A DNA stretch of 64,000 nucleotides from a virus. Below are positions 2,021 through 50,711 of this stretch, in pieces. The notes under the pieces were generated by a model. It worked only from the letters and a program-made list of their open reading frames with translations. It was not told the origin of the DNA and made no database searches. Position numbers and translations under genes: made by a program. Location of the stretch: the IMG/VR virus record IMGVR_UViG_3300029121_000001; one strand, 5' to 3'. Numbering within the stretch: the first letter of the stretch is position 1; every line of letters begins with the position of its first letter.

Positions 2021-3067
2021 TTACTTATTATGATTATCATAATTTTCCATGGCAGCTTTCAATCTTGTCTGTATTCTATTAGTTTGCTCCTCAGTCATTT
2101 TATAAAATTCAAGAGGACTAAATTCCTGTTCAGATTCAATAAAAGGAACAATCCAAAGAATCTCATCAGAATCCATAATAATCATATACTTCATCTTGAT
2201 AGAGTTTAAATCAATATCGTATCCAAACTTAATAGGAACAGCTTTTACGATATTAATTCCACCACACATCATAGACAGAAATACCTTATTCTCATCAGAA
2301 ATGGGCTTATTAAACTCAAGTTTAAAATCAGTTTTAATAATTCCAATCTTAGAATAAATATCAGTCATCAATCCACAATGGCCAATAAACTTAAAGAGAC
2401 TATTACAATATCCATTATAGCAATCATCTTTAATCGCATTCAGGAAATTCAGAGTAGTATCTTTAGCATATCGAATTGCGGTTTCATAAAGATCATTAAG
2501 AATGTCTTGTGTAGTAGTATTATCGAGTAAAACAGCAAGTGTGCTAGGTGTATCAAATTTGTAAACGTTAGCCATACGAGAATCAATGATTTTAGAAGCT
2601 GCACTAAGATCACTAAAACTATATCCTTCAGGACAAGCATCATCGGTAATGGAAAATCCTACGTCGTCTTCATTAGGATCAAGAAAAGTTTTAAAGATAT
2701 TCATTAGAGATTGACGTGCAAGAATGCAAGGACTATCTGCATCGATCATATGAATATCTTTATTCTCCATAAAGAAAAGCATAATGATATCTTTAATTTC
2801 TCTACCATTTTCTAATTCAGTAACTACTACGTTACTAAGAGACAGAATACCATCAGGAGCTAGAGGAGTATAACCCTTAATCATTTCCTTAAATTTATCT
2901 TTAGGAAGAGTTTTATATCCTTTCACCTTATAATCATGATCAAGTTCTGCATAATTCCAACTTTTACCATTATCAGATTCTTTGATAATACGAACCATAT
3001 CAAAACCATCATCAATACTATTATATTTGCAAAACAGTTTACCGATATTTGTTTTCAATTCTGTCAT
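2021..3067 (-). CDS. hypothetical protein
   Basis: 348-aa ORF, AAGGAG RBS 8 nt before the ATG. Confidence 0.85.
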   Translation of the reverse strand: MTELKTNIGKLFCKYNSIDDGFDMVRIIKESDNGKSWNYAELDHDYKVKGYKTLPKDKFKEMIKGYTPLAPDGILSLSNVVVTELENGREIKDIIMLFFMENKDIHMIDADSPCILARQSLMNIFKTFLDPNEDDVGFSITDDACPEGYSFSDLSAASKIIDSRMANVYKFDTPSTLAVLLDNTTTQDILNDLYETAIRYAKDTTLNFLNAIKDDCYNGYCNSLFKFIGHCGLMTDIYSKIGIIKTDFKLEFNKPISDENKVFLSMMCGGINIVKAVPIKFGYDIDLNSIKMKYMIIMDSDEILWIVPFIESEQEFSPLEFYKMTEEQTNRIQTRLKAAMENYDNHNK

Positions 3068-3128
3068 GATGATTACTCCTTTTCAAACATCTGTTATTGT
3101 ACAGTTTTTATTGTAATAAACAATAAAA

Positions 3129-3156
3129 GACCAATAGGACGAAACTCCTATTGGTC
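3129..3156 (-). terminator. intrinsic terminator after 3191..3514
   Basis: Hairpin gaccaatagga/tcctattggtc followed by TTTTATTGTTTATT on the minus strand. Confidence 0.65.
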
Positions 3157-3190
3157 TCATTATTATATTATCTCAGCAATTGGAAATTTA

Positions 3191-3514
3191 TCATCGACAT
3201 TCTTGAACATACAAATTAGCACAATTACCCGTAGATTGAGCATCTATTCTAAATACTTTGCCATATATATTCTTTCGATTATGAATATCATAATTAATAT
3301 AATTAACCATGTTAGCCAAATCGGAAGGATTAGATGTCATGATTTGCATTTGAAGCGTATAATGGTTTGAGTCAGTGATACCACACACTCCAGTTACATT
3401 ATATTGCTTTACAATATCATATATTGCCATTGAATGGTCAAAGAATCGTAGAATATCATCAATAGGATAAGTAGATGCTTTATATGTCTGTCCAATGAAT
3501 TCTGGCATATTCAT
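3191..3514 (-). CDS. hypothetical protein
   Basis: 107-aa ORF, AAGGAG RBS. Confidence 0.8.
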   Translation of the reverse strand: MNMPEFIGQTYKASTYPIDDILRFFDHSMAIYDIVKQYNVTGVCGITDSNHYTLQMQIMTSNPSDLANMVNYINYDIHNRKNIYGKVFRIDAQSTGNCANLYVQECR

Positions 3515-3529
3515 TAGAGTTTGACTCCT

Positions 3530-3685
3530 TTAGGTAAGATTATCTTCTATCATTCTACCTACTTGTCTAGCTCCTTGTTCCTCTTTTGATAATTTACTTT
3601 CTTCTTCTTTTTCTCTCCAATACATATAATACAATGTATTTATATCAGATAATAGAAGATGATCGAATTCTAACATAGAGGTCAT
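3530..3685 (-). CDS. possible small ORF (51 aa)
   Basis: MTSMLEFDHLLLSDINTLYYMYWREKEEESKLSKEEQGARQVGRMIEDNLT fills the gap between two minus-strand genes, but no clear RBS. Confidence 0.3.
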   Translation of the reverse strand: MTSMLEFDHLLLSDINTLYYMYWREKEEESKLSKEEQGARQVGRMIEDNLT

Positions 3686-3708
3686 GTTTTTAAAATACTT
3701 AACCAGAG

Positions 3709-5658
3709 TTACTTTTCTGTATATGTAGTCGCGATACGAACCAATTGCTGCCGTGTAAAAAGCATACCACGAGGATTGACAGTGCTCTCAGCTACCTTAT
3801 TACCACACTTCGGACAATTAGTTTCAGGCATCACATACTCAATATCAGCATTAGACTTAATAACAGCAGCATTGATTAGAGAAGCAACAATGCTAAATTC
3901 AACAGTATTAAATTCCTTAAGGATCTTAGAATATGCAGCAATCTTAGACTTGAAAGTCTTAGCATGATCGCCAGGATACTTTTTCCATCCAACAGGATAT
4001 AGATTACCATCATCACCGATCATATAAATACGATCAATGAATCTAATGACACTAATAATGGATTCATACTTTCTGATGAATGCATCATCAAGAGCACCAT
4101 ATTCATACATGATAGTGAACAAAGAAGGCATCTTGATACCAACAGCAAATCTATCATTGATGACAGTAACTACAGATTCATATGCTCCAGAGTTGTCAGG
4201 TGTTAGTTCCATATTCTTGATAGAATCAAACTTCTTCTTGGTATCATCGCTTCCGAATTTAACCATCTTATCAATGGGAAGATCATCGGATAGCCAAGCA
4301 TATTGGCAATGATCATTGTCACATGTGTAAGGTACATAGTTAGCACCTTCTAGAGATGCTACATATAGTGCCATAAAAATGCTATCTAGATCGCCAAAAG
4401 GAATGGTCTTAGCCCATGCTTCCAGAGTAGCAGGACGATACGGATTGACATCATGCTCAAAAATAATACGAGCCTGAGTAGTTGTCAGAACAGTATTAGA
4501 ATTATTATCCTGCTCTGCTAGCAATGCAACTTCAGCACCCTTTAGAGAAGATGCAATATAAGGACGATTTGCAAACATCAAAGGCCAAGTAGCAGTCTTA
4601 ACTGCAACGGGCTTAGTATTTTTCAAAACGTCCTTAATATTAATGACCTTATTAGAAACAACAAGCTGAGATGCATTTACTTTACGACCAGTGTTAACAA
4701 TCTTCTTCATGATATCATTACGAAGATTTGCCATTGCAACATCAACAAGTTTTTCAGATTCCTCATCATCAATAGGATCAGTTCTAGAACTTTCATCCTC
4801 ATCATCAGACTCTTCTTCAAAATCATTGTCATCAATATCTTCTAGATCATCAGATGTCACATGAGAAATATTGTTATCCATACTAGTCAAGGTATCATGC
4901 TTATCATCTTCAGCAGCAAGAATCTCTGCATCCTCGGACTCAACAGCACTATCTTCCTCAACGTCATCTGTGACGGTCTCATCCTCCGCATTCTCTTCTT
5001 CAGGAGCAGCTTCTTCCTCTACAATATGAGCAAAAGGATGAGGATTATTATCTTCTTCGATATCTTGATTATGAATCACAACATGAGTAGGCTCTTCAAC
5101 TTCTTCATCCTCATCATAATCAGAATCTTCAAAGTCATCATTTAGATCTTCGGACACAATACCATTATCTGTATTGATTGGTGCCTTAATCTTGTCATCT
5201 TCACTCATAGGTGTATATAGAGGATTCGGCATATACTGAATCTCATCACCAACATTCTCTAGACCATTCTCAATGCTTTCACGGTTAGCAGCATCTTCTT
5301 CTTCCATCTTAGCAACAGCTTCATGGAATTCCTGCTTACGACGAGTAACAGCAGCTGCTAGTTCGTTGACATACTTCTCTTGAATAGGCTTAGGTTCAGG
5401 CTTACTAACAGGCTCAATATAATCATTAGGATTAATTTCTTGAATCTGATCTGCAGATTCAACAGTACGATGAACACGCTTACGATTAGGATTAATCTTA
5501 ATTGTCTGACGGTTAGGATTCTGATTTTCATCAGCAATACCAGTAACAGTACCACCTGCTGCATTGATATTAATAGGTTGAGTATTCTGGGCAGGAGTTA
5601 CGCCAGGCTGTGTAATAACAACCTTAGGTCCAGTTCTATTTAGATCATTCACATTCAT
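3709..5658 (-). CDS. hypothetical protein with a long acidic low-complexity centre and a C-terminal CxxC pair
   Basis: 649-aa ORF, AAGGAG RBS. D/E-rich region; NCPKCG near the C-terminus. Confidence 0.85.
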   Translation of the reverse strand: MNVNDLNRTGPKVVITQPGVTPAQNTQPININAAGGTVTGIADENQNPNRQTIKINPNRKRVHRTVESADQIQEINPNDYIEPVSKPEPKPIQEKYVNELAAAVTRRKQEFHEAVAKMEEEDAANRESIENGLENVGDEIQYMPNPLYTPMSEDDKIKAPINTDNGIVSEDLNDDFEDSDYDEDEEVEEPTHVVIHNQDIEEDNNPHPFAHIVEEEAAPEEENAEDETVTDDVEEDSAVESEDAEILAAEDDKHDTLTSMDNNISHVTSDDLEDIDDNDFEEESDDEDESSRTDPIDDEESEKLVDVAMANLRNDIMKKIVNTGRKVNASQLVVSNKVINIKDVLKNTKPVAVKTATWPLMFANRPYIASSLKGAEVALLAEQDNNSNTVLTTTQARIIFEHDVNPYRPATLEAWAKTIPFGDLDSIFMALYVASLEGANYVPYTCDNDHCQYAWLSDDLPIDKMVKFGSDDTKKKFDSIKNMELTPDNSGAYESVVTVINDRFAVGIKMPSLFTIMYEYGALDDAFIRKYESIISVIRFIDRIYMIGDDGNLYPVGWKKYPGDHAKTFKSKIAAYSKILKEFNTVEFSIVASLINAAVIKSNADIEYVMPETNCPKCGNKVAESTVNPRGMLFTRQQLVRIATTYTEK

Positions 5659-6191: not shown

Positions 6192-9100
6192 ATGCAGTCT
6201 ATTATTCTTGCAGAATCAGTTGTTGCTAATACTGCTAAGAGTACTTATCAAAAGAAATATAAGTGCCCTTATTGTGATAAACGATTTGTAAGAGCAAAAC
6301 TTCATATTCATATTCAAAATGAACATGAAGATCTTATACCTGAAGGTTATACTGCTCTTAGAGTAGCATTCAATACTATTAATCATAAAACAGAAGGTCA
6401 TTGCATTATGTGTGGTGCAGTGACTGATTGGAATGAAGACAAAGGTAGATATGAAAGACTCTGCAATAATCCTAAATGCCATGAAGCATATAAGAAGATG
6501 GTTGCAGAACGTACTAAGAAAAAGTATGGCACAGAACGTCTTCAGACAGATCCAGAATATGCAGAATATGTTCAAAGAAAAGCACTTGCTGGACGCAAAA
6601 TGCATGGAGAATATAAATTTGCTGATGGTGGAGTAATTGAGTATTTCGGAAGTTATGAAAAGAAATTCCTTCAGTTTATGGATCAAATAATGCATTGTAA
6701 ATCTGAAGATATTCTTGCTCCTGCTCCTAGTATCAAATATATTTATAATGGAGAGCAGCATCTATATATTCCTGACTTCTATTATATTCCTTATAATCTT
6801 ATTATAGAGATTAAAGATGGTGGAAGTAATCCGAATAACCATCCTCATCGTACTGGAGAAGATGAACTTAAGCTTAGATGTAAAGAAGAAGCTATTATAC
6901 AGCTTAATGAATTTAGCTATGTAAGAGTAGTTAATAATGACTTTAGCCAAGTATTGAGTATCATGGCAGTGCTTAAATATAACATGGCTCATAGATACAA
7001 AGACCCTGTTGTTAAGGTAAATGAGAGTACGCTTCTAGAAACTGCTAGTATAGTAGATAAGAATTTCAAGCCTAAAGACAGAATTAATCTATATTCTTTG
7101 AAGAAAGTTCATATCACGGAAGCCGTCATTGAAAAGTATAAGAAACAGTATCCTGATCTGCGTCATGTTAGATGCAAAGATACTGATACTTATAAATGTG
7201 ATGGATATATGTGGTTTGATAATGAGAATCTAGTAGCCCAAGTAGGATCTTGTGAGTATCTAGATGATGGAACAAAATGGATTGTAAGTCTAGATATTAT
7301 GAAAGATTATAAGGGTCATGGTTTAAGTAAACAAATTCTTGATTTTGCAACTAAGATCATGAAATGCAAATATCTTTCTGTAGATAAAAATAATAAACTT
7401 GCAAAAATGATTTATGATCAGTATGGATTTAAAGTTTATTATGAAGATGATAAGATGTACTACATGACTCTAGAAGCAAATCCTGTAAAGGTCAATGAAT
7501 CTACTTTATTAGAATCTGTATCTAATAATTATCCTAAGGATCTTTATAACTGGATGAAGGCAAATATTACATATAAATCTACTGGAATTCTTCTATCACC
7601 TGAAGAGGTAGAAGAATATGGATATGGAGATTGTCATGATCAGGCAAATTATATTCATAGTAAATTGTCTACTAAAGATATTTCTAATGGAAGATTATTT
7701 GTGATTGAATATAATGATCTAAATTCTCCTGCAGGAAAAACTCATACTGCTGCTTATTATAAGCAGAATGGAAAGTATTATTGGATTGAAAATGCTTGGT
7801 ATGAGCAAACTGGAATCCATGGTCCTTATAATAGTATTTTCGATCTTAAAATTGCTATTGTAAATGTATGGGTTTGGGGTAATTATAAGAATCTATATAT
7901 AGGCTCTGTAAATAGATCTAAAATTAAGAATGGTATGAATCTAAATGATTATGTAAATGCTTGTCTTCCTGAGAATGAAAAAATGATTAAGCCTTTTATT
8001 ATCAATGAAGATAATACCAATCATATTAAGAATAAAGTTGTTGAGTCTATGTCTGATACTATTGGTGGTGCATTACCACTAACTCCTAATCCTATTCCTT
8101 ATGAATCTAATAAAGATAATTATTACATTATCCAGCATATGGAGAATAATGCTTTTGCTTATTCTCTTACTAAAGATCCTGTACAATATACAATGTATTC
8201 TGTAGATCCTGAATCTAAAGGATTTTATAAAGTTTTTAAGTCTGATAAGAGTAAGATTAATAAAAAATATTCTACTTTTAAGATCAAGGATCGCCAAAAA
8301 GCAAAAGAACTTTATGATGAATTAGCAAAGATTGAATCTTCTAATTCTAAAACTTTCTTTGCTGGAGATACTTCTAATGATTATATTTATCAACGTCTAA
8401 CTGAAGGCTCTAAAATAATTTCTGATGATCAAATTAGATATGATACTAGATTTGAAGAAGTTAAAAACTTCAATGAAGAAGTTCAAGATATCTGTGAATC
8501 TGTAAGAAATTTCATTCTTGGTGATCCCATCACTAGACTAGAAGAGCAGGTATCTACTCTATCCAATCTAGTAAATATCAATGAATCTTCTAATTATGTC
8601 TCTAGTGATTATGACATGATTACTAGTATAGAAGATTATGATAATAAAGTTCTTAAAGCAAAAACTGCTGAACAAATGGGTTTAATTATTCTATATCCTG
8701 AGTTTAAATATGGTACTTGTAATAAAAATACCATTGATAAACTTAAGAAGAAATATGCAGACTTTAATGCTCTTTCCCAAGAAAAAAGAACTCTATCTAA
8801 TAGAACAGCATATCATATCTTTGGATATGATAATGATACTCTATATAGTAAGCTACTTAATCTCTATGTATCAACAACTATGAAATCCGGAGGAGGATCA
8901 GAAGGATATTCATATAATACTATGAGATCTATTACTCCTCCTATTGAGCAATATTATAAACCTGGTGAAAAAGTTGGTACAGTTAGTTCTGATACTAAAG
9001 TGGCTAGAGAATCTTTTACTGATGATTCTTCTTGGAGACAAGTTGTAAGCAAACTTTGTCTAGAAGCAAATAACACAAGTGATGCAAAAAAGAAAAATGA

Positions 9101-9902
9101 TCTCAAAAATGAGATCATCAATCTTGGATGGAATCCTGAAATTCCTTTCAATGAAGAAGCCATTACTAGAGTAAAAAATATGAGACATAAGCTTCATATT
9201 TTTACAGAGGTGGATGCTGAAGAGTATATCAGAAATATTCATACTTTCAATGAAGCTACTTATAATCAATTGAAAGATAAGATTGTTCCTGTATTCATTT
9301 GCCTATTCAAAGGTAAAGCTCTTCATAGTAGAGGAATTGAGCTGTATACCGGATCTGAATGGTCTCATGCTGCAATATCATTCGATTCTTCTATGAAACA
9401 AATGTATACATTTAATATGAATCCTAAAGTAACTTCTAATGGAATATCTAAAGGATTTACTATTGAAAGTATAGAAGCTTATTGGAAAATAGATCCTTCT
9501 ATCAAATTCAAAGTTCATGCTCTATTTGTTACAAAAGAGCAAAAGATTATGATGGAAGATGCAATCAAATGGTATGTAACTCATCAGAATGAAACTAAGT
9601 ATTCTTTTAAAACCATTATCAATATTGCTCTAAAACGAGTATCAGATTTTGGTTCTGAATATGCAAATAAAACTGAAATGGTATGTAGTCAGTTTGTATA
9701 TACTATTTTGGCAATTGCAGATTTCAAAACTAAGGTCACTAAAGATGCAAGTCTAGTAAGTCCTGGAGATCTTGATACTAGTATTGATGATAGACTATAC
9801 TCTATGTTTATTGGAGGTATTGGCCTATATAGTAGTAAAAAGATTGATAGAATGGTTAGACAAATCATTCCTACACTACCATTAGATAAGTATAATATTT
9901 AA
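6192..9902 (+). CDS. multidomain polyprotein: C2H2 Zn finger, PD-(D/E)xK-like nuclease motif, GNAT acetyltransferase, transglutaminase-like Cys peptidase, C-terminal permuted papain/YiiX-like peptidase
   Basis: YKCPYCDKRFVRAKLHIHIQNEH; IPDFYY..IIEIKD; YKGHGLSKQILDFA (GNAT motif A); YGYGDCHDQANY; WSHAAISF ... MVCSQFVY ... SPGDL. The linker PV(V)KVNESTLLE is repeated. Confidence 0.6.
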   Translation: MQSIILAESVVANTAKSTYQKKYKCPYCDKRFVRAKLHIHIQNEHEDLIPEGYTALRVAFNTINHKTEGHCIMCGAVTDWNEDKGRYERLCNNPKCHEAYKKMVAERTKKKYGTERLQTDPEYAEYVQRKALAGRKMHGEYKFADGGVIEYFGSYEKKFLQFMDQIMHCKSEDILAPAPSIKYIYNGEQHLYIPDFYYIPYNLIIEIKDGGSNPNNHPHRTGEDELKLRCKEEAIIQLNEFSYVRVVNNDFSQVLSIMAVLKYNMAHRYKDPVVKVNESTLLETASIVDKNFKPKDRINLYSLKKVHITEAVIEKYKKQYPDLRHVRCKDTDTYKCDGYMWFDNENLVAQVGSCEYLDDGTKWIVSLDIMKDYKGHGLSKQILDFATKIMKCKYLSVDKNNKLAKMIYDQYGFKVYYEDDKMYYMTLEANPVKVNESTLLESVSNNYPKDLYNWMKANITYKSTGILLSPEEVEEYGYGDCHDQANYIHSKLSTKDISNGRLFVIEYNDLNSPAGKTHTAAYYKQNGKYYWIENAWYEQTGIHGPYNSIFDLKIAIVNVWVWGNYKNLYIGSVNRSKIKNGMNLNDYVNACLPENEKMIKPFIINEDNTNHIKNKVVESMSDTIGGALPLTPNPIPYESNKDNYYIIQHMENNAFAYSLTKDPVQYTMYSVDPESKGFYKVFKSDKSKINKKYSTFKIKDRQKAKELYDELAKIESSNSKTFFAGDTSNDYIYQRLTEGSKIISDDQIRYDTRFEEVKNFNEEVQDICESVRNFILGDPITRLEEQVSTLSNLVNINESSNYVSSDYDMITSIEDYDNKVLKAKTAEQMGLIILYPEFKYGTCNKNTIDKLKKKYADFNALSQEKRTLSNRTAYHIFGYDNDTLYSKLLNLYVSTTMKSGGGSEGYSYNTMRSITPPIEQYYKPGEKVGTVSSDTKVARESFTDDSSWRQVVSKLCLEANNTSDAKKKNDLKNEIINLGWNPEIPFNEEAITRVKNMRHKLHIFTEVDAEEYIRNIHTFNEATYNQLKDKIVPVFICLFKGKALHSRGIELYTGSEWSHAAISFDSSMKQMYTFNMNPKVTSNGISKGFTIESIEAYWKIDPSIKFKVHALFVTKEQKIMMEDAIKWYVTHQNETKYSFKTIINIALKRVSDFGSEYANKTEMVCSQFVYTILAIADFKTKVTKDASLVSPGDLDTSIDDRLYSMFIGGIGLYSSKKIDRMVRQIIPTLPLDKYNI

Positions 9903-9912
9903 CAAACAAAAA

Positions 9913-9939
9913 TCGGCTAGGGAGTTAATCCCTAGCCGA
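9913..9939 (+). terminator. hairpin after 6192..9902
   Basis: tcggctaggga/tccctagccga stem 10 nt after the stop; weak T-run. Confidence 0.5.
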
Positions 9940-9982
9940 CTTATTCAAATCTGCAGTCATTGATTTTCACTTTCCTTCAATT

Positions 9983-9998
9983 AGATATTATAAATATG
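9983..9998 (+). promoter_or_regulatory. promoter-like motif AGATATTATAAATATG
   Basis: Plus-strand copy 56 nt upstream of the plus-strand gene at 10054. Identical 16-mer to the minus-strand copy at 37090-37105. Confidence 0.5.
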
Positions 9999-10053
9999 AA
10001 ACAATAGACCCAAACTCTAGAGTTTCAAATAATATTAAAAGGAGGAAAGTACC

Positions 10054-10305
10054 ATGTCCGTACTTCCTGAAATACAGTTCTCAAAAGTTTCTGTTTACAA
10101 ATATGATGATGGCAAAGCCACTCATATTATCAAGCACGAAGTAATACCGCATCTCATAAATGATGTATTGAACTGTAGAGACTCTACAAAGATCCTACCA
10201 GATAGATACATGAAATCTATCAACAATGCTAACGACCACTACTTGAAAGAGTACAACAAAGTCGCTGGCATTGCTAAAGTCCCTTCAATAACTGCATTAC
10301 TATAA
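10054..10305 (+). CDS. hypothetical protein
   Basis: 83-aa ORF, AAGGAGG RBS. Confidence 0.8.
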   Translation: MSVLPEIQFSKVSVYKYDDGKATHIIKHEVIPHLINDVLNCRDSTKILPDRYMKSINNANDHYLKEYNKVAGIAKVPSITALL

Positions 10306-10314
10306 TGTATATAG

Positions 10315-10337
10315 GTGTAGAGAATTATTCTTTACAC
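10315..10337 (+). terminator. intrinsic terminator after 10054..10305
   Basis: gtgtagagaa/ttctttacac hairpin followed by TTTTTATTTTTT. Confidence 0.7.
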
Positions 10338-10347
10338 TTTTTATTTT

Positions 10348-12822
10348 TTATTTCTTTTCGCCTTCGTTATTAGGCTGATTATTATTCTCTTGATTCTGAT
10401 TATTCTCTTGATTACCGTTATTTTTCTTATTATTCTTTTCCTGTTTCTTTTCGTTCTTACTAGAAGCTTTAATAACAGTTTTAAATAGATTCATATTCTG
10501 TTTATATGCTGCAAAAGCATTAGTACACTTAGCAGTTATAACAGAAATGTTTGTAGAGAAACAACGATGAATAGCATCATCAAGAGTTTTAGAATTATTA
10601 TCATCAACCTTACCAGTAGCCTTTTCAGCATCTTCAGTGGTCTTTTCACCAGGAGTAATCTCTGCTTCATTGAAAGGAAGTTCATCATCAATCTGAGAAA
10701 GTCCTAGACATTCAGCAAGATTAAATCCAGAATTAAAATCACTGATAGCAGACTCATGCCCAGTCTGTTGTTGGGCAGGTTTCTGAGATCCGGTTTCACT
10801 CTTAGGTTCACCAGAACTAGGTTGTTGTTGAGTTGCTTGATTATTGGTATCATTCGAAGGATTATTTCTCATCTTTACCATATAATCATTATAATTTCTA
10901 GAAGCATTCTTATAATCTTCATCAATTTGCTTATAATCATCATTAATAGTTCCAAGAGCATCAGATGAATATCCCTTATAAACAAATTCATCAACGTATT
11001 TAAATGCTTCATCAAAATTATATCTAATATTTGCTAGAGTCTTACCTTTACTATTATCAATATTAATATAAGCTCCTTGGTAAGCTTTATTAACTCTAGT
11101 AAGGAAAGAGTCATCCTTATCTTTTCCAGCAGTAGCTTTATAATCAGTTCCGGTAGTGCCATGAATTTTATTAAGTGCTGCATTCTCCATAGCATCATCA
11201 GACTGAAGATCTTTGCTAACAGGATCAAACTTAATGACTGTAGAATTCTTGAACAAATTAAGATTATAACAATACCATTGGTTAACTTGAGTATCCATGA
11301 TATTGATATTCTTTAGTTTATTCTTATTATCTTCCCAGAACTGTTTGTCTCCACCCTTGCCAAGAACTTCATCGATTCGCTGCTTAAATCTACCAATAGC
11401 CTCTCCAAGTCTAGAAATAATTTGTTTAAGCCAATTAAGGATACCAAATTTATTTTTAGACTTAGAATTATTTTCTTTATTATTATTCGAATCATTATTA
11501 TTTGAATTATTACTATCTTTATTTTGATTTTCTTGCGGCTTAGATTCTTCTGCTTTTCCATCACTTTTGCTACTGGAATCTTCTGGTCTTCCGATAGTAG
11601 GCTCATTAGATTGAGCGTCCCATTCTTCTCTAGTTAATTCTGTCAAGTATTGTTCAAGCATGCACTCAAACTTATACTCATTATAAACGTTCTCAATGAG
11701 CATATTAGTCATTGTGTTGTCATGCTGAATATCATAGAATTCTTTAACAGAATCTTCACCATTGAAGGAAATAGAATCAGCAGGAGTATCTTGAGCAACA
11801 TCTTCAACTGGCTTATCAGTATTTTCAGATAGATCACAGTATTTAAGAATTAATTCATGAGCAGTATTAATTACTGTAATAGAATCTTTTCCATATCCAT
11901 AAATATCAATTAATCTATGAATCTTTCTACTAGCAACAATATTAGCTACACAAATTACATTCTGAATTACATTAATCAAAGATGCTGACCGATGTCCATA
12001 TATATTTTTATATTCATTAGAACCATTATTCTCTAGATTATTAATATACTCATCTATTTTATGAAGGCAATTATTAAAGCTGGATTCTACATCAGCTTTC
12101 ATATAATCTAGAAGCTCAATAACTGTATCAATAGAATTAAGATTAGAATATGCTCTGATATAAGTATCTAGAAGAAATCTCTGAGTATATTTACGATCCG
12201 GCATTAATGTATCTGCAATTCCAACTGCAAAAGACATAGTGTTAGCGGCCTTAGAAGGATCATAAAAACTACCAAGCATATTATAAAGAATATTATCTTT
12301 AAAAGAATTGAAATCAGTATTCTCAGTAGTGATTCCCTTAATAGCAGAAATATTGGGGAACATCTTGTCTAGAATAACATTTCCAGCAGTAATTTCTCCA
12401 ATATTATGAATTTGTAGCTCTGCAGGATCTGCGATTACAATCATTCTCTTAATAAATTCAATTCTCTGTGATATAGAATATTTATATTCAATAGGATTTT
12501 TCTCTCTTGTCTTACAAGATTCGATAGTTTCCTTAGCACCAGAAATTTCTTCTAGTAGAGAATTCTTTACTGTAGAAATAGCTTCTTTAGCAGTTGTAAG
12601 AGAATCATAAATCTGGCTAAATTGAATATCTCCAGGCTCTTCAGATTCATTAATAGAAACAATATTTTGAACAGATTCTCTAAGAGTATTATTAAACTTA
12701 AGAGTATTTTGAAGAGTAAATTCTTCTACATTAACGCAATTATTGTAGTTAATATAATCAGGAATATGGCAATGAGAATTATATCCTTCAAGAAAGAATT
12801 TATAATTCATATTTAGTCCCAT
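10348..12822 (-). CDS. hypothetical protein with N/Q/S-rich low-complexity tracts
   Basis: 824-aa ORF. Confidence 0.85.
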   Translation of the reverse strand: MGLNMNYKFFLEGYNSHCHIPDYINYNNCVNVEEFTLQNTLKFNNTLRESVQNIVSINESEEPGDIQFSQIYDSLTTAKEAISTVKNSLLEEISGAKETIESCKTREKNPIEYKYSISQRIEFIKRMIVIADPAELQIHNIGEITAGNVILDKMFPNISAIKGITTENTDFNSFKDNILYNMLGSFYDPSKAANTMSFAVGIADTLMPDRKYTQRFLLDTYIRAYSNLNSIDTVIELLDYMKADVESSFNNCLHKIDEYINNLENNGSNEYKNIYGHRSASLINVIQNVICVANIVASRKIHRLIDIYGYGKDSITVINTAHELILKYCDLSENTDKPVEDVAQDTPADSISFNGEDSVKEFYDIQHDNTMTNMLIENVYNEYKFECMLEQYLTELTREEWDAQSNEPTIGRPEDSSSKSDGKAEESKPQENQNKDSNNSNNNDSNNNKENNSKSKNKFGILNWLKQIISRLGEAIGRFKQRIDEVLGKGGDKQFWEDNKNKLKNINIMDTQVNQWYCYNLNLFKNSTVIKFDPVSKDLQSDDAMENAALNKIHGTTGTDYKATAGKDKDDSFLTRVNKAYQGAYINIDNSKGKTLANIRYNFDEAFKYVDEFVYKGYSSDALGTINDDYKQIDEDYKNASRNYNDYMVKMRNNPSNDTNNQATQQQPSSGEPKSETGSQKPAQQQTGHESAISDFNSGFNLAECLGLSQIDDELPFNEAEITPGEKTTEDAEKATGKVDDNNSKTLDDAIHRCFSTNISVITAKCTNAFAAYKQNMNLFKTVIKASSKNEKKQEKNNKKNNGNQENNQNQENNNQPNNEGEKK

Positions 12823-12914: not shown

Positions 12915-13139
12915 TTAAATATATATTATATTAGCATAACTACTATAGTTTCTAAAATCGAACCCACTGCTCCAGTCAAATCCATATGTAGCATATACTT
13001 TACCGTTATATTGATATGCTGTAAAATATTCAGATTGTCCTGGACTATCTAATAAATCACATCCTATCATTGTGCCATTTAATGGATATCCACTAGTAGT
13101 AATATAAATATTATTAAGCTTTTTTATAGAAGCGTCAGA
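12915..13139 (-). CDS. startless cassette a (74 aa), SDAS...IIYI family
   Basis: Opens at TCT GAC GCT TCT directly after an in-frame TAA. No start codon, no RBS. SDASIKKLNNIYITTSGYPLNGTMIGCDLLDSPGQSEYFTAYQYNGKVYATYGFDWSSGFDFRNYSSYANIIYI. Paralogue of cassette j. Confidence 0.6.
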   Translation of the reverse strand, partial: SDASIKKLNNIYITTSGYPLNGTMIGCDLLDSPGQSEYFTAYQYNGKVYATYGFDWSSGFDFRNYSSYANIIYI

Positions 13140-13555: not shown

Positions 13556-13619
13556 AATAATTAACCTCCTTTTATGATGATGAAACAATCCGAAATAGAG
13601 AATTCTTATATTCCTATCT

Positions 13620-13635
13620 CAATTTTATATTATGT
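13620..13635 (-). promoter_or_regulatory. promoter-like motif ACATAATATAAAATTG
   Basis: Degenerate copy of AGATATTATAAWWWTG, 65 nt upstream of the 13555 start. Confidence 0.35.
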
Positions 13636-13661
13636 AAGTGAAAATATACACTTTAAATAAA

Positions 13662-13922
13662 TCTGACGCTTCTATTAAGATAAAGAATAAAATTGTAAAT
13701 GTAAAAGATTATTATACATTTAGAGATGGTATCATATTAAATACCTGCCTTATGACGTATTCTAATGTAAGTTATTCATATAGGCCATTTATTCAAGTGC
13801 GTTACGATAATAATGATAATAGTTATAGTATTAGAATACAATGTATCATTAATAGTGATATTGATGGATATAATTTCGATAATAGTGTGAATGATGGAAG
13901 TATTATAATATATTATATATAA
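13662..13922 (+). CDS. startless cassette b (86 aa), the only motif copy on the plus strand
   Basis: AAATAAATCTGACGCTTCTATTAAG. SDASIKIKNKIVNVKDYYTF...SIIIYYI. The frame is open from 13638 (GTG), but there is no RBS. Confidence 0.55.
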   Translation, partial: SDASIKIKNKIVNVKDYYTFRDGIILNTCLMTYSNVSYSYRPFIQVRYDNNDNSYSIRIQCIINSDIDGYNFDNSVNDGSIIIYYI

Positions 13923-13962: not shown

Positions 13963-15297
13963 TTACTTATTAAATGCTTCTTTTTCTAGATTAAATAAAT
14001 AATCAGCTTCTTCTTTACCAAGAATATCTACTACTTCATTATATGGAAGATTGATCTTTGTTGGATCTTTATCTCCTAACTCAATACATCTTCTATTATA
14101 ATAGTAATAGTATCCTAATACTCTACCTTTATGAGCATAACAAATTCCAGTATATCTTTTATTCGCAGTTCCATATAATTCATAATTATATGCAGAACAC
14201 CAACCACAATTCAAAGATACAGGACAATCAATACACTTCTTTGGAGATTGAGAAGTGAATGTTATAGAATCAAGTTCTTTCTTGATATTCTTACTACTCT
14301 CTGATTTAAATAATCCATTAAAGCAATCACCAATAATAATTTTATTAGCTTTCTCTTTTCCAATAGATATAGGAGCATATCTAATACAAGGATAAGCATT
14401 GCCATCTGGGTCAAATGCCATCATATGACCGGTACCACCACAGAAATTCTTATCATCATGCTGTAGATTGACTGCTCCTCCGAGAGTAGAATCAAGTAAA
14501 GCTACAATAGCATTACTTTTATTTTGAATTAAATAATTAGAAAGCTTCTTTAATTCAAAATAAATATTCTTTGCATCACTAATAGAATATTCTGGTTCAT
14601 ATGCAAAATTGCAATTAACAAGGTTACATCCATTCTCAATCATCATCTTAATAGATGGAGTAATATATTGAACAGAATTGGGAACAAATGTCATTTTACT
14701 ATTCGCTGAACCATAAATATTTTTTACATCAAGAAATGCTTTATATGCTTTTTCAAATGATCCTTCTCCATATCTATCGATTCTATATTTATCATGAAGA
14801 TCTTGAATACCATCAATAGATACAGTAATTGATAAGAATTCTTTATACTTATGCACAAAATGTTGTACATCTTTATCAAACCAATTCTGACCATTTGTAG
14901 CAAAAGCAATTCTAGTAAATTGAGCAATAGGAATATTCCTTAAATAGCATTGATGAAAGAAATAATCACATATTTCTTCTACTAATTTTGCTTCTAGCAT
15001 TGGTTCTCCACCAATAAAATCAAGAATAATACTTTTTGTATTCTTATTGATAAAATCAGTGTCATTATCCTCATACATATCTAGAATTCTATCAATACAT
15101 TTTTTACCAATATAGAGAGACATAGATCCATCAGACTTATGATGTTCATAACAATAAGAGCAACGAAGATTACACTGATTTGTTACCTGAAATGTAATTT
15201 CTCGTGCAGCCTCCATTTTTCGATCTTCTCCATTTGAAAAAATCTCTCGAATATACTCACCATAATTGTCTCTAGATCGACTATTAATACTTACCAT
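13963..15297 (-). CDS. radical SAM enzyme with C-terminal SPASM-like Cys cluster (anaerobic sulfatase maturase / peptide maturase family)
   Basis: CNLRCSYCYEHH (CxxxCxxC), GGEP motif. C-terminal CIDCPVSLNCGWCSAYNY...GICYAHKG. Confidence 0.85.
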   Translation of the reverse strand: MVSINSRSRDNYGEYIREIFSNGEDRKMEAAREITFQVTNQCNLRCSYCYEHHKSDGSMSLYIGKKCIDRILDMYEDNDTDFINKNTKSIILDFIGGEPMLEAKLVEEICDYFFHQCYLRNIPIAQFTRIAFATNGQNWFDKDVQHFVHKYKEFLSITVSIDGIQDLHDKYRIDRYGEGSFEKAYKAFLDVKNIYGSANSKMTFVPNSVQYITPSIKMMIENGCNLVNCNFAYEPEYSISDAKNIYFELKKLSNYLIQNKSNAIVALLDSTLGGAVNLQHDDKNFCGGTGHMMAFDPDGNAYPCIRYAPISIGKEKANKIIIGDCFNGLFKSESSKNIKKELDSITFTSQSPKKCIDCPVSLNCGWCSAYNYELYGTANKRYTGICYAHKGRVLGYYYYYNRRCIELGDKDPTKINLPYNEVVDILGKEEADYLFNLEKEAFNK

Positions 15298-15584
15298 GTT
15301 AATTCTACCTCATTATTATCGAAATCAAATTCATATTCTATAGAAGAAGGAACTTTTCCGATTATAGAGGCAATAAGAGTATTTACGTTTACCATAAATT
15401 CAATATAGGCATTCTGATAATCTACTCTATATTTATCTATCATAGCTGCAGTTTCTGCGGATTTATTTTCTGCAAATTCACGAGCCAATACACAAATGAA
15501 ATTTTTATAACTCATCATAATATAATGAAGTCTTTCAATTGTAATAGATTGCTCTTTATCAATATTAACTTTCTTTTTCTGCAT
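15291..15584 (-). CDS. hypothetical protein
   Basis: ORF overlapping both neighbours. The ATG at 15584 (MQKKKVN) follows GGAG; the track start at 15605 is less likely. Confidence 0.65.
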   Translation of the reverse strand: MQKKKVNIDKEQSITIERLHYIMMSYKNFICVLAREFAENKSAETAAMIDKYRVDYQNAYIEFMVNVNTLIASIIGKVPSSIEYEFDFDNNEVELTW

Positions 15585-16185
15585 TATTATTAGTCTCCAT
15601 TTCAATCAGATGATAAGCTGTAGTTTCAGTTTTAAGAGATTCATATCGATCTCTTATATAAAAAATTTTATCGAGAATCCTGATAAGAAGACTATTGTCT
15701 CTATCCTTTTCTTCAATCATCTTATTAGCAATTGAACGTAGCACAGTATAAAGACAATATACATGAAAATTAGAATTTGTACTCATACTTAGAAAAATGT
15801 TTATTTTATTATTATCTATAGGAAATCCATCAATAACAGTAAAATTGCATTTATCTGAATATGTCTTTAAAGTAATTGTATATATAGTAAGAAGTATTTC
15901 TTCATCTGTAGCATCATAATTACATGCTGAAAAAATACTAGATACTACAGAACTTACATATTTTGCATAATCATGTATATTAATAGAAAAGTCAGAATGA
16001 CAAAGTGTGCAAAAATAATCTATATAACAAAATTCGGGTTCTTTAGATATATTATCAAAAATAATAAGCATATCTTTAGTAATTGGATCCATTGAAAGAA
16101 ATCTATTAAGTAAGAAATTCTTTTTAAAGAATTTATCATTTTTAGAATAATTTATAGTAAAGGTATCATTAGTAATATCTATCAT
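15565..16185 (-). CDS. hypothetical protein
   Basis: 206-aa ORF, GGAGG RBS. Confidence 0.8.
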   Translation of the reverse strand: MIDITNDTFTINYSKNDKFFKKNFLLNRFLSMDPITKDMLIIFDNISKEPEFCYIDYFCTLCHSDFSINIHDYAKYVSSVVSSIFSACNYDATDEEILLTIYTITLKTYSDKCNFTVIDGFPIDNNKINIFLSMSTNSNFHVYCLYTVLRSIANKMIEEKDRDNSLLIRILDKIFYIRDRYESLKTETTAYHLIEMETNNNAEKES

Positions 16186-16198
16186 AAAATATCCTCCA

Positions 16199-16756
16199 TT
16201 ACATTAACCAAAATCCACATCCAGAGCAAGATTCACAAGTATGAGCACATCCAGATCCACACCCTTCGCATCCATCACACCCTCCACTACATCCTCCACT
16301 ACATCCAGAGCAAGTAGTGTTACATCCTCCACTACAATTTGTTTTACAATTTCCAGAACATCCTTTACAACCACCATAGCAACCAGTATTGCACAATCCA
16401 CTACAAGATGCTTTACATCCAGTAGAGGTCGCATCTTTAGCAATTTTAGAAAGATTGCCTACTGATGTAGTAGCATTTGTAAGTACACTAGCAATAACAT
16501 TAGCATTTTTATCAGGAGTTGTATTACTACCAGTAACAGCATCCAAAGGTTTAGTAATCTTTTGAATGTGTTCTAAATTGATTTTAATATCTTTACCTTG
16601 AGCTGGTGTAGTAGTATAATCATATGAAGTTCCATTATAGGATTTCATACTTCCAACACTTGCTGAATTTGATCTACGTGTAATCTCCGATTTTACGAGT
16701 TTCTTAAGTGCAGTAAAATCACTAGCATTAATTAATTCGCTTTTTTTAATACCCAT
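16199..16756 (-). CDS. protein with an extremely Cys/Gly/Ser-rich C-terminal tail
   Basis: 185 aa. The last 72 residues contain 19 Cys at 3-4 residue spacing (CKASCSGLCNTGCYGGCKGCSGNC...CESCSGCGFWLM). Confidence 0.8.
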   Translation of the reverse strand: MGIKKSELINASDFTALKKLVKSEITRRSNSASVGSMKSYNGTSYDYTTTPAQGKDIKINLEHIQKITKPLDAVTGSNTTPDKNANVIASVLTNATTSVGNLSKIAKDATSTGCKASCSGLCNTGCYGGCKGCSGNCKTNCSGGCNTTCSGCSGGCSGGCDGCEGCGSGCAHTCESCSGCGFWLM

Positions 16757-16760
16757 AATA

Positions 16761-17303
16761 TTACCCTCTTACACGAATGCGTACTCGACGAATATCTGTA
16801 TTAAGATCTTCATCGACTGCATATCCTACAATTTGTGTATTTTCTACTATTTCATCATGAAGTTTTGCTTTACCAACTCCAGAAATATCAGAAACTATAA
16901 TAGTATCTCCACGATGAATTTCTCCAATACACTTACAGTATACACGGCCACATAGTGATACAGGAATATATTTCTTAATATTCTTAGAAATATAATCATC
17001 ACTATTATCATATTGATCACCACCAATAATCATAGCATATTCATCAGAATGAACACCTGCAATAATACTACTTTTATTAGTAGCTTTAATATAGCTTTCT
17101 TTATCAGAAGATAGATCAAGAGCAATAATATCTCCAGGTTCTGTATATTCTCCTCTAGGGAAGAATTCTGCATAGTCATTATATACAGCACCATAACATT
17201 TACTAAATTTTGCTACACCATTTTTATCTACATAATAACTAGCACTACCAAAATTAATAGTACCCGTCATTGTTCCACCAGACTTAAGAAGATAAGCGTC
17301 AAA
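16761..17303 (-). CDS. startless cassette c: tail-fibre-like C-terminal module with Peptidase_G2/IMC-like domain
   Basis: Opens TAA TAA TTT GAC GCT TAT, giving FDAYLLKSGGTMTGTINF (classic fibre motif). DYAEFF...IAGVHS...PVSLCGRVYCKC resembles the phi29 gp12-type autochaperone. An internal ATG at 17270 has no RBS. Confidence 0.6.
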   Translation of the reverse strand, partial: FDAYLLKSGGTMTGTINFGSASYYVDKNGVAKFSKCYGAVYNDYAEFFPRGEYTEPGDIIALDLSSDKESYIKATNKSSIIAGVHSDEYAMIIGGDQYDNSDDYISKNIKKYIPVSLCGRVYCKCIGEIHRGDTIIVSDISGVGKAKLHDEIVENTQIVGYAVDEDLNTDIRRVRIRVRG

Positions 17304-17340
17304 TTATTATAATTTTAATATATTTCAAAAAAAAGAAAAA

Positions 17341-17364
17341 CCAATAGAGAGAAATCTCTATTGG
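17341..17364 (-). terminator. intrinsic terminator between cassettes d and c
   Basis: ccaatagaga/tctctattgg hairpin followed by TTTTTCTTTTTTTT on the minus strand. Confidence 0.7.
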
Positions 17365-17371
17365 TTTATAA

Positions 17372-17587
17372 TTAAATATAATACACTATACAAGATATAT
17401 TATCATCCGTCCAAGTTGATGTATTACTACCTAAAGTAAAATGAATACAATATATCCAAGATGATTTAGATATAAATGCAATATAATTATAATAGTTTTC
17501 TTTAATTGCAACAGATATTGGAATTCCTAATGTAAACTTTTGTCCTGATTTAAAATCTATACTCTTAATTTTAGTAGAAGCGTCAGA
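17372..17587 (-). CDS. startless cassette d (71 aa)
   Basis: TGA TCT GAC GCT TCT. SDASTKIKSIDFKSGQKFTLGIPISVAIKENYYNYIAFISKSSWIYCIHFTLGSNTSTWTDDNISCIVYYI. No in-frame start near the 5' end, no RBS. Confidence 0.6.
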   Translation of the reverse strand, partial: SDASTKIKSIDFKSGQKFTLGIPISVAIKENYYNYIAFISKSSWIYCIHFTLGSNTSTWTDDNISCIVYYI

Positions 17588-17606
17588 TCATTCAAAAAAA
17601 AAATAA

Positions 17607-17632
17607 AAGCATGAAATTAGATTTCATGCTTT
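17607..17632 (-). terminator. intrinsic terminator after 17647..18390, abutting the cassette motif
   Basis: agcatgaaat/atttcatgct hairpin followed by TTTTATTTTTTTTTT. Confidence 0.7.
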
Positions 17633-17646
17633 TATTTTATGATATC

Positions 17647-19131: not shown

Positions 19132-19371
19132 TTATATATAATAAATTATTGCTGTACCTGATACACAGTTATCAACATCATGTGAATTATATCCAGTATT
19201 TGCACATATATAATATAAATTTTCAGTATAATATTTATTATTCATTGTTATACTACACACAGGATAATTAGTACCATTATATATTAATACAGCAGATATT
19301 GGCGTTCCTGGTACAGAAAAATAACTTGACACTTTTACTGTTATATTTTTAATCTTAGTAGAAGCGTCAGA
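19132..19371 (-). CDS. startless cassette e (79 aa)
   Basis: TGA TAA TCT GAC GCT TCT. SDASTKIKNITVKVSSYFSVPGTPISAVLIYNG...GTAIIYYI. The track GTG start at 19332 has no RBS and lies inside the conserved region. Confidence 0.6.
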   Translation of the reverse strand, partial: SDASTKIKNITVKVSSYFSVPGTPISAVLIYNGTNYPVCSITMNNKYYTENLYYICANTGYNSHDVDNCVSGTAIIYYI

Positions 19372-20158: not shown

Positions 20159-20287
20159 ATGGCTAGTGTTGTAACTGGTAATATTCCATCATTAAATATT
20201 GGAAATAAATATTATGACATAAAAGTTATATTAGATTATACATACAGTAAAGATTTATCTGTGATCGTATCGGTTATATATTATTAA
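20159..20287 (+). pseudogene. possible remnant of a cassette-family C-terminus on the plus strand
   Basis: 42-aa ORF ending ...SVIVSVIYY-stop, like the YYI-stop family end. No 5' motif, no RBS. Confidence 0.25.
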
Positions 20288-49762: not shown

Positions 49763-49839
49763 TGGTGGGCCATGTAGGACTCGAACCTACGACCATCCGG
49801 TTATGAGCCAGAAGCTCTGACCAACTAAGCTAATAGCCC
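49763..49839 (-). tRNA. tRNA-Met: tRNA with CAU anticodon (Met, or Ile2 if lysidine-modified), encoded CCA
   Basis: GGGCTATTAGCTTAGTTGGTCAGAGCTTCTGGCTCATAACCGGATGGTCGTAGGTTCGAGTCCTACATGGCCCACCA folds as a cloverleaf with GGTTCGAGTCC T-arm. Confidence 0.9.
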
Positions 49840-49871
49840 TTATAAGTAGAATTAGGGGAGATAATTCTACA

Positions 49872-49954
49872 TGGTGCAGGAAAAGGGACTTGAACCCTCA
49901 CTCCGAAGAACTAGATCCTAAGTCTAGCGTGTCTGCCATTCCACCATTCCTGCA
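49872..49954 (-). tRNA. tRNA-Leu: tRNA-Leu (UAG anticodon), class II with long variable arm, encoded CCA
   Basis: TGCAGGAATGGTGGAATGGCAGACACGCTAGACTTAGGATCTAGTTCTTCGGAGTGAGGGTTCAAGTCCCTTTTCCTGCACCA; anticodon loop CTTAGGA. Confidence 0.88.
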
Positions 49955-50474: not shown

Positions 50475-50711
50475 TTAAATATAGAATATTCTTACATTAT
50501 ATTTTGCTAAAATAATATCATGTGCGTTTAAGTCAATATTAAATGCAGCGATTCCATATTGTGAATTACTAATGTAATATATGGATACATATGGAAGTCC
50601 AGATATAGAATTCACATCTTTACATACTGCAGATATTACAGTTCCATTTTTAAAAGTTTTTAGTTCTGGGATATACATATCTATATATTTAATTTTAGTA
50701 GAAGCGTCAGA
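50475..50711 (-). CDS. startless cassette g (78 aa)
   Basis: TAA AAT AAA TCT GAC GCT TCT. SDASTKIKYIDMYIPELKTFKNGTVISAVCKD...NVRIFYI. The internal ATG at 50678 has no RBS. Confidence 0.6.
   Translation of the reverse strand, partial: SDASTKIKYIDMYIPELKTFKNGTVISAVCKDVNSISGLPYVSIYYISNSQYGIAAFNIDLNAHDIILAKYNVRIFYI

Follow-up and report, generated by a model that had tools for sequence, protein, structure and literature searches.

What does a phage do with a tail-fibre gene that has no beginning? The question is raised by a 64,000-nucleotide (nt) stretch of viral DNA (IMG/VR virus record IMGVR_UViG_3300029121_000001), here called the window, which comes from a ~258-kb human-gut jumbo phage. On its minus strand, at 16761–17303, lies an open reading frame (ORF) of 180 codons that encodes a short fibre stub followed by a chaperone-like domain, heads an operon and opens directly behind stop codons. 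A first-pass annotation, made from the letters alone, had taken this ORF, and the smaller ORFs that share its head, for truncated fibre genes. We find that relatives of the phage carry the missing front half on an element of less than 1 kb, which lies between two direct copies of the hexanucleotide GACGCT and sits in front of different C-terminal segments in different genomes. Very probably, the phage keeps a library of silent 3′ cassettes, a mobile 5′ fibre module recombines with them at GACGCT, and the module at 16761–17303 is one of its empty targets.

The readings of the module ORF, of the hairpin before it and of the preceding cassette (cassette d) all refer to the minus strand. Two stop codons, TAA TAA (17309–17304), are followed by TTT GAC GCT TAT CTT CTT AAG TCT GGT GGA ACA ATG ACG GGT, with the ATG at 17270 and the last of these codons ending at 17262. 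The ORF that opens at TTT GAC GCT encodes FDAYLLKSGGTMTG…, its head reading FDAYLLKSGGT-MTGTINF, and the frame stays open to a stop at 16761, giving 180 codons from 17303 or 169 from ATG 17270. Cassette d (71 codons, 17587–17372) lies directly upstream with a hairpin between the two, as first annotated. That hairpin does resemble an intrinsic terminator, with 13 pairs and a T-run, and is conserved in the related loci L120, L126 and L128, but it spans 17367–17338 rather than 17341–17364. ATG 17270, which had been called the only in-frame ATG, is the first of two, the second standing at codon 91; it does lack a ribosome-binding site (RBS). Genes of this phage usually start with AAGGAG(G), 6–9 nt and then ATG, whereas ahead of ATG 17270 there is GGTGGA alone, 3 nt away.

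The truncated layout is not peculiar to the window. It is kept in L123, L126 (two copies) and L128, with the hairpin, an AT-rich block, in-frame stops and (T/A)(T/A)T GAC GCT in the same arrangement and a normal RBS again absent. In diverged truncated relatives the 11 codons before the ATG vary at synonymous positions (Leu CTT/TTA/CTA, Lys AAA/AAG) while still encoding the same residues. Homologues that began at the equivalent of ATG 17270 with a normal RBS, over 11 unconserved upstream codons, would have counted against the truncated-fibre reading; because these codons are conserved as protein, with stops upstream and without a normal RBS, that reading holds.

Homologues of the module come in two sizes, 278–315 aa and ~165 aa, the shorter ones having been called from the internal ATG. 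One of these short forms, P0001, matches the window at 100% identity and is encoded on ~259-kb contigs. The long proteins P0002, P0020 and P0036 (69–89% identical) run the module on from a 136-aa N-terminal part, ...SMNQTLTSLN-DAYLLKSGGTMTG. Alignment to these longer fibres, which had been proposed as a check, thus locates the missing N terminus directly before the DA of the module, at a ...SLN-DA junction. The module is under constraint, with a ratio of non-synonymous to synonymous substitution rates (dN/dS) of 0.2–0.6.

Structure prediction of the 180-aa product points to a chaperone fold. An AlphaFold 2 (AF2) model (pLDDT 82, residues 1–15 disordered) finds phi29 gp12 entries as its best Foldseek matches, 3suc at the top (E 1.2e-4, TMq 0.57) and 3gqh, the C-terminal autochaperone fragment, with a TM of 0.53/0.58. 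The resemblance to Peptidase_G2 proposed at first pass is supported by this fold and by a Pfam match on a homologue (PF11962 reaches 29.1 bits, cut-off 25, on P0017, which is 76% identical, and 23.9 bits on P0020), but not by the window protein itself, which has no PF11962 match at E ≤ 0.01; a PDB sequence search with the module profile returned spurious ubiquitin matches alone. The phi29 gp12 autochaperone (Peptidase_G2, PF11962) shares with module residues ~40–180 its fold (3suc, 3gqh) and a D-Y-A-E motif, which is invariant in the module family, and differs in that identity is 15–16%. An autochaperone at the C-terminal end is also what the fused relatives P0020 and P0005 show. These comparisons support the prediction that the C-terminal region is an intramolecular chaperone of phi29 gp12 type.

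Could the short class instead be a gene in its own right? The module would then be expressed from ATG 17270 as a 169-aa protein (a free chaperone or short stub), the sequence upstream would be promoter and 5′ untranslated region (UTR), and fusion to the N-terminal domain would be an alternative architecture. Truncated copies outnumber the long ones in the database and evolve under purifying selection, the codon-12 ATG is conserved in all of them with GGTGGA before it, and internal promoters of AR9-like phages can yield N-terminally truncated proteins (PMC5312081). However, the ATG and the GGTGG would be conserved anyway because they belong to the universal fibre motif SGGTMTG, the strength and spacing of this Shine–Dalgarno (SD) sequence are far from the phage norm, and the 11 upstream codons behave as coding sequence. 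To judge from phi29 gp12, autochaperone cleavage would leave ~30 residues of mature protein. Nor does the explanation apply to the other cassettes, four of which have no canonical start and most of which have none near the 5′ end. We consider self-expression unlikely. The ORF at 17303–16761 is an intact cassette whose docking site is empty (attB) and, because of that, is probably silent, or at most weakly expressed, in the present genome configuration.

Where, then, is the N-terminal domain (N-domain)? It is not encoded anywhere in the 64-kb window. A search with the N-domain alone recovered 79 proteins, mostly of 205–238 aa; 57 are 79–96% identical to the query, and other lineages 38–65%. In these proteins the 136-aa domain is joined at ...SLN-DA... 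to many unrelated C termini, including orthologs of window cassettes. Its partners are small cassettes (P0151, whose C terminus is cassette-d-like, P0152, P0165, P0169, P0198 and P0230, the last an ortholog of the window cassette at 13139–12915) and members of a second, big class (L138, L140 and L141), and there are also N-domain-alone forms that end ...SLNDAITK and a stop. Since the same domain is fused at the same junction to small and big cassettes alike, the early suggestion was sound: the cassettes are parts of genes and not small genes in their own right. We had entertained the latter possibility, as a search with the cassette profile gave just 62–139-aa proteins, and dropped it once the fusions emerged with the N-domain query; the word-prefiltered profile search with cassettes had overlooked every N-domain fusion, and its negatives do not amount to absence. 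An AF2 model of the fusion P0151 was unusable (pLDDT 54). In one respect the picture goes beyond the initial description: far from being decayed truncations, the cassettes are 3′ gene segments that remain intact and selectable and at which a mobile 5′ segment docks.

The boundaries of that mobile segment are sharp. In L120, a syntenic ~259-kb relative, homology to the window begins exactly at GACGCT, with ...CGCTAAAT running into GACGCTTATC... where the window has ...ATAATTT before GACGCTTATC...; a second GACGCT lies 831 bp upstream, right after the cassette d terminator, and is followed by ATT ACG AAG TAG. The module core, T-GACGCT at 17295–17301 on the minus strand (attB variant AATTT GACGCT TATCTT), is the exact homology breakpoint against relatives, 17301 aligning to L120 10408, and breakpoints of the window against both L120 and L152 fall at T-GACGCT. 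Altogether, 12 loci carry the same element between two direct GACGCT copies, with a length of 831–845 or 943–944 bp and always in frame: before small cassettes in L134, L135, L136, L137, L139 and L152, before big-class cassettes in L138, L140, L141 and L151, and before the fibre module in L120 and L142. Docked at the module, as in the last two, the element makes a ~313-aa fibre and presumably drives four downstream genes as well.

All four junctions expected of a site-specific exchange can be read. To the left of an inserted element stands what normally precedes a start-less cassette, a hairpin, a T-run and GATAA TCT. Where a cassette is empty, as in the window, the site reads TCT-GACGCT-TCT (attB); in occupied loci the left junction is TCT-GACGCT-ATT ACG AAG TAG (attL) and the right one CTA AAT-GACGCT-TCT (attR). 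The fourth, CTA AAT-GACGCT-ATT ACG AAG TAG (attP; …CTAAAT GACGCT ATTACGAAGTAG), is found in L133, a 1085-bp MEGAHIT k141 contig that begins and ends with the same 141 bp. By this exact terminal overlap L133 closes to a circle of 944 bp, the same length as the long element type. On either side of the attP core stand the arms of an imperfect inverted repeat, ACTTCGCTAAAT and ATTACGAAGT. Among the viral contigs, each genome piece has one attL and one attR.

From its left end, the element consists of an invariant 37 nt beginning GACGCT ATT ACG AAG TAG (...ITK and a stop), then a terminator and conserved blocks, 3–5 direct repeats of TGTGAAGAC..CG.TTTAAGA, similar to the left arm of attP, an invariant hairpin block, a 5′ UTR, an SD sequence (AGAAAGGAAA), an ATG and the 136-aa N-domain ending ...SLN. 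Its content is constant (831–944 bp) between direct core repeats in all occupied loci, which is not the inverted-site layout of vsa-type inversion, a bacterial system considered below. An inverted copy of the core lies inside the element just upstream of the 5′ UTR (L120 9845, L134 9843 and L135 9842, all on the minus strand; L133 ~922–935), placing the 5′ UTR and N-domain between inverted cores ~560 bp apart; inversion between them would uncouple the N-domain from the cassette and could act as an ON/OFF switch. Short N-domain contigs break in a hairpin, and their ends are uninformative on heterogeneity. L132 (ERZ27271590 k95_34715) has a chromosomal N-domain gene at 923–1374 whose 5′ end differs: it comprises an AAGGAGG SD of its own and 'MASVNKVKVETDIYY', the head found in a paralogous fixed fibre gene. 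The gene finishes in ...SLNDAITK and a stop, as at the circle junction. It looks like a homologous-recombination hybrid of the element and the fixed paralog (P0219/P0222 type, adjoining the recombinase in L135).

The cassettes themselves, silent 3′ segments without an RBS or a start codon near the 5′ end, share the recombination core at that end. A 20-nt motif occurs eight times in the window against 0.05 expected, and an 11-nt core pattern, with one mismatch allowed, ten times against 3.9 expected, nine of the ten heading in-frame ORFs; a further core copy at 56227 makes the core-headed ORFs of the window at least 10. Together with four related genome pieces, the window yields 37 such ORFs; five relatives by themselves contain more than 40. 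Of the 37, 24 have an in-frame stop immediately 5′ of the core, 20 reach their first canonical start at or beyond codon 34, and four lack one altogether. The core TGACGCTTCT (positions −1 to +8) is 86–100% conserved in the 37, the invariance of T-GACGCT being a consequence of how the ORFs were selected. Because the heads use GAC for Asp (34 of 41) against a genome-wide preference for GAT (90%), the core is constrained at the nucleotide level, as a signal, which we take to be the recombination core site.

At cassettes the site is asymmetric, with an AT-rich left arm, then T-GACGCT, then TCTAyTAArAT. Three unrelated protein classes share it: a small class of ~64–100 aa ending ...YYI, a big class of ~250–307 aa ending ...LRPLIYIR, and the fibre module. 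The dN/dS of the big class, like that of the module, is 0.2–0.6. In the small class it is 0.35–2.2 and the ORFs stay open in DNA of ~28–29% GC, the pattern expected of fast-evolving binding tips. Head-to-head cassette pairs ~20 nt apart occur. A 14-nt core search of viral contigs was dominated by chance matches.

Does the element move? Across otherwise syntenic genomes of ~258–276 kb it occupies different loci: before the fibre/radical-SAM operon, between head-maturation genes and RNase H, in the recombinase-proximal array, near a homolog of the window's 182-aa gene, and before the ortholog of the window cassette at 13139. L153 and L154 give the closest comparison. Their flanks are 99.97% (one mismatch in 3245 nt) and 100% (2333 nt) identical, the element stands at two cassettes 3.2 kb apart, and each genome is empty at the site occupied in the other, with unchanged flanks there.

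An obvious candidate for the enzyme is an Xer-like tyrosine recombinase encoded at 57788–58780 on the minus strand, two genes away from a cassette array. The NCBIfam XerA/integron-integrase model matches it at 220 bits, and Pfam finds a Phage_integrase domain; the protein falls short of the IntI-type integrase models (TIGR02249, 102.6 bits against a cut-off of 265; PRK15417, 65.8 against 435). Its ortholog adjoins the array that holds the element in L135. These positions suggest a link to switching, and other recombinases may exist in the ~194 kb outside the window.

We propose the following mechanism. The phage would keep a library of promoter-less, RBS-less and start-less 3′ segments for the distal tail fibre, of which the fibre-module class would drag a four-gene Cys-rich/radical-SAM operon behind it. 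Each genome piece examined carries a single non-autonomous element, which would be able to recombine at GACGCT with any cassette. Insertion would create an in-frame N-domain–DA–cassette fusion, the element supplying translation signals, and presumably transcription, to the cassette and the genes behind it; excision would restore the start-less cassette and release a small circle. The tyrosine recombinase would act in both steps, the closed contig would represent a real intermediate, and the cassettes would be receptor-binding tips exchanged on the time scale of infection. In its boldest form this is a 'reverse integron', in which a sub-kb circle actively hops among dozens of dispersed cassettes during infection by means of the Xer-like enzyme and leaves progeny with different receptor-binding tips; on that version we are evenly divided.

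Several observations weigh against the proposal. Movement is read from assembled contigs of different samples, and the window is 99.99–100% identical to contigs from two other samples without rearrangement, so switching may be rare. The window genome's own element, if it exists, must lie outside the window. The circle in L133 could be a collapsed tandem repeat, and the attB arms around the core are only weakly symmetrical. No promoter was identified in the element. The phage shows no enrichment of the late consensus of AR9, AACA-N6-T[AG] (6 of 34 against 4.3 ± 1.9), and the cassettes have no copy of it upstream. One plus-strand subfamily, at 13662–13922, may be self-expressed and misfits a purely silent library. 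Finally, the element copies of L153 and L154 are 96.3% identical (3.7% different), with a neighbouring segment at ~96.8%; this divergence amid flanks of ~100% identity implies exchange between co-infecting genomes at the same cores in addition to, or instead of, simple hopping. Independently, a scan for sigma-70-type promoters gave 99 sites against 91 expected from shuffles, no better than chance, and was set aside.

The unrearranged window and the diverged element copies would also fit mosaicism alone, in which the core is a conserved domain-boundary linker, homologous or microhomology swaps between co-infecting phages make the junctions, start-less copies are leftovers, and no dedicated element, recombinase or switching exists. 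Mosaic breakpoints do fall at cores as well, and recombination of PeSL type in T4-like phages needs no dedicated recombinase to produce comparable mosaics and mini-circles (PMC2839356). What mosaicism leaves unaccounted for is the precision of at least 14 independent junction pairs within the same 6–7 nt, always in frame. It likewise sits badly with the inverted arms around the attP core and the 3–5 arm-like direct repeats, with a core whose synonymous positions do not vary although the three protein classes that share it are unrelated, with dozens of start-less ORFs kept open under selection, and with a conserved tyrosine recombinase linked to the arrays. We judge it quite improbable as the whole explanation, and favour a mobile 5′ module with silent 3′ cassettes.

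It is very improbable that the core-headed ORFs are ordinary genes with unconventional initiation (leaderless mRNA, AUU/AUA starts or a special initiator tRNA) and that the motif is a promoter or translation signal: a −10-like hexamer ([TGA]ATAAT) does end 3 nt before the core, a separate terminator follows every cassette, some relatives have an ATG directly before the core (MNDAS..., MYNDAS...) and Ile codons are common at codons 5–8, but the fused forms account for the missing starts without a new mechanism, the invariant core contains no in-frame near-cognate start, head-to-head pairs ~20 nt apart leave no room for two promoters, and attL, attR and attP would go unexplained.

Other candidate explanations for the missing starts were rejected. 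Recoded stops read by suppressor tRNAs do not fit, the only tRNAs of the window being tRNA-Met(CAT) and tRNA-Leu(TAG), and the upstream regions hold all three stops. Introns or known RNAs were not found: Rfam at gathering thresholds reports only the two tRNAs in the window, and matches to the extra segment of L120 are at chance level at E ≤ 1. A prfB-like +1 frameshift, an NTG start in the +1 frame, bypass and tmRNA-like resumption were dismissed by reasoning, as the frames yield only peptides of 2–9 codons and no consistent upstream ORF or start exists.

With mobile-module switching as the preferred reading, the window can be laid out as a library of about eleven silent cassettes dispersed over 12.9–56.5 kb (at least 43 kb) on both strands. 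Like the fibre module, cassette d and at least eight other ORFs of the window are empty. Cassette d (17372–17587, minus strand; SDASTKIK...CIVYYI and a stop) opens right after a TGA with TCT GAC GCT, has no ATG, GTG or TTG before codon 68 and has orthologs in L120 and L128; directly before its core lies the terminator hairpin of an upstream 247-aa gene (17600–17638, minus strand). Further small start-less cassettes on the minus strand lie at 19132–19371 (79 codons, SDASTKIKNITVK...IIYYI and a stop) and 12915–13139 (74 codons, SDASIKKLNNIY...ANIIYI and a stop), the ortholog of the latter being occupied by the mobile module in L152 (P0230). An array of three, also on the minus strand, comprises a big-class cassette of ~306 codons at 50718–51638 (...PLIMIR and a stop) and small start-less cassettes of 78 codons at 50475–50711 and 87 codons at 50195–50458. 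Immediately downstream of this array, tRNA-Met(CAT) and tRNA-Leu(TAG) are encoded at 49763–49953 (minus strand). A second big-class cassette (55361–56227, minus strand; 288 codons, NDASNKLG...LRPLIYIR and a stop) has orthologs fused to the N-domain in L138, L140 and L141, and a small start-less one at 56232–56456 (minus strand; 74 codons, no canonical start anywhere) heads the recombinase-proximal array. In relatives, uninterrupted small-cassette arrays are longer still, with seven in L151 at 2566–4364 (minus strand) and at least eight in L154 at 8129–11116 (plus strand), spaced by ~240–500 nt, mostly ~250–330.

Two members show decay, as expected of unexpressed copies. The big-class cassette at 51638–50718 is interrupted at codon 252 by a premature in-frame TGA; this is a nonsense mutation that befell a silent copy, or possibly a read-through stop, and the frame after it runs 54 more codons to the family's normal ...PLIMIR ending. 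At 20159–20287 on the plus strand is a dead remnant that, compared with L120, has lost its core and ~45 codons between short AATT repeats. The plus-strand cassette at 13662–13922 (86 codons; 13618–13922 with the sequence before it) is preceded by eight further open codons, beginning with a GTG, and ahead of these by a promoter-like repeat. That repeat, TTCAATtTTATAATATCT, recurs at 18446 and 20123. Many relatives of this subfamily have an ATG 9–10 codons upstream (MKIYTFKNIN-DAS...); L128 has GTA instead and L120 is frameshifted.

As first proposed, the fibre module is gene 1 of an operon, with four co-oriented genes following at gaps of 4–13 nt or with overlaps, and the block is syntenic in six other loci. 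Gene 2 (16199–16756; this and the rest on the minus strand) encodes a Cys-rich CxxxC-repeat protein, presumed to be a radical-SAM target (phrog_6085; PF27846 faint or weak on orthologs), and genes 3 (15565–16185, 206 aa) and 4 (15291–15605, 104 aa) are syntenic genes of unknown function. Gene 5 (13963–15297) encodes a radical SAM/SPASM peptide maturase (PF04055, Fer4_12) related to the CXXX-repeat-target family: it scores 292.5 bits on TIGR04115, below the cut-off of 350, and has the Cys-rich neighbour. The fibre module is always trailed by the Cys-rich protein (~30 Cys, CxxxC/CSGGC repeats), two small proteins and the radical SAM/SPASM protein (window 13963–16756; L001 6536–9339; L120, L123, L126, L128), and the same block is present in an unrelated, higher-GC gut phage (MT835573). 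It looks like a tail-fibre-linked system for peptide or protein modification. Because the operon is not at this locus in L152, lies elsewhere in L123 and is duplicated in L126, the whole 3.3 kb behaves as one cassette, in the sense that docking at the module presumably drives all of it.

In type the genome resembles the AR9/phiKZ-like jumbo phages, with a multisubunit RNA polymerase beta-like subunit (53127–54554) and a topoisomerase II (59542–61914), both on the minus strand, yet with strong SD use and ~30% GC. A giant tail or ejection protein is probably encoded at 38745–48239 (minus strand), where the C-terminal quarter of a 3164-aa ORF carries C39-like peptidase, CHAP and tail-lysozyme domains.

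If the proposal is correct, it has several implications. First, one phage genome would be a library of receptor-binding tips, with at least 10 in a 64-kb window and arrays of 7–8 and more in relatives, and the phage would choose among them by relocating the front half of the gene while the back halves stay in place, which would let it change its host-binding tip. Second, programmed variation would gain a new architecture, and the dozens of ORFs without starts that gene callers see in these genomes would be explained; for annotation, start-less ORFs headed by TGACGCTTCT should be neither trimmed to internal ATGs nor dropped. Third, the system offers a handle on host-range switching in abundant, uncultured gut jumbo phages. 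Finally, a 6–7-bp core with a donor of less than 1 kb is a possible tool for in-frame swapping of protein domains.

The closest systems in logic are vsa of M. pulmonis (HvsR), vpma of M. agalactiae (Xer1) and vsp of M. bovis, in which a single module serves silent 3′ genes through a site in or just upstream of the coding region. In M. pulmonis one expression module, consisting of promoter, RBS and the first 714 nt of the coding region, is joined to one of many silent 3′ genes; Xer1 of the vpma system is encoded next to its gene family, and terminators flank the silent genes in vsa-type systems (PMC2268961). Here too, an Xer-like tyrosine recombinase gene, as yet a candidate, stands beside the family. 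The differences are that vsa-type systems work by inversion within one compact bacterial locus, whereas the direct core repeats and the closed ~0.94-kb contig indicate excision and integration, and that their product is a lipoprotein rather than a virion fibre with targets spread over at least 43 kb of a phage genome.

Shufflons (Rci of R64; Rin of Bifidobacterium prophages) and the invertase systems Mu Gin, P1 Cin and p15B Min likewise provide alternative C-terminal ends through short intragenic repeats and start-less silent segments. In R64, Mu, P1 and p15B the constant N-terminal part is fixed and variable segments switch by inversion alone, within one small region. In the system described here the N-terminal part is inside the mobile element, and the cassettes stay put over 12.9–56.5 kb. 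The Rin shufflons of Bifidobacterium prophages are a phage precedent for switching a receptor-binding protein (PMC6109161).

Integrons also combine promoter-less arrays, a tyrosine recombinase, a small circle and expression by juxtaposition to a single promoter-bearing site. Their arrangement is reversed, in that cassettes circulate and the platform (attI and Pc) is fixed; here the platform moves, the cassettes are fixed and the fusion is translational and in frame. The 3′ hairpins of the cassettes are perfect terminator-type stems with T-runs, not attC hairpins, and the mobile unit is a 5′ module. PeSLs of T4-type phages are terminator-plus-promoter motifs that bound small ORFs in hyperplastic regions, where recombination shuffles genes and yields mini-circles (PMC2839356). 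They are regulatory only and driven by homology, involving no coding sequence or in-frame fusion, in contrast to the 6–10-nt core and precise crossover found here. The literature that we searched held no description of such an architecture. The mechanism thus belongs with recombinational switching between one expression site and silent cassettes, implemented unusually, and possibly without precedent, in a phage.

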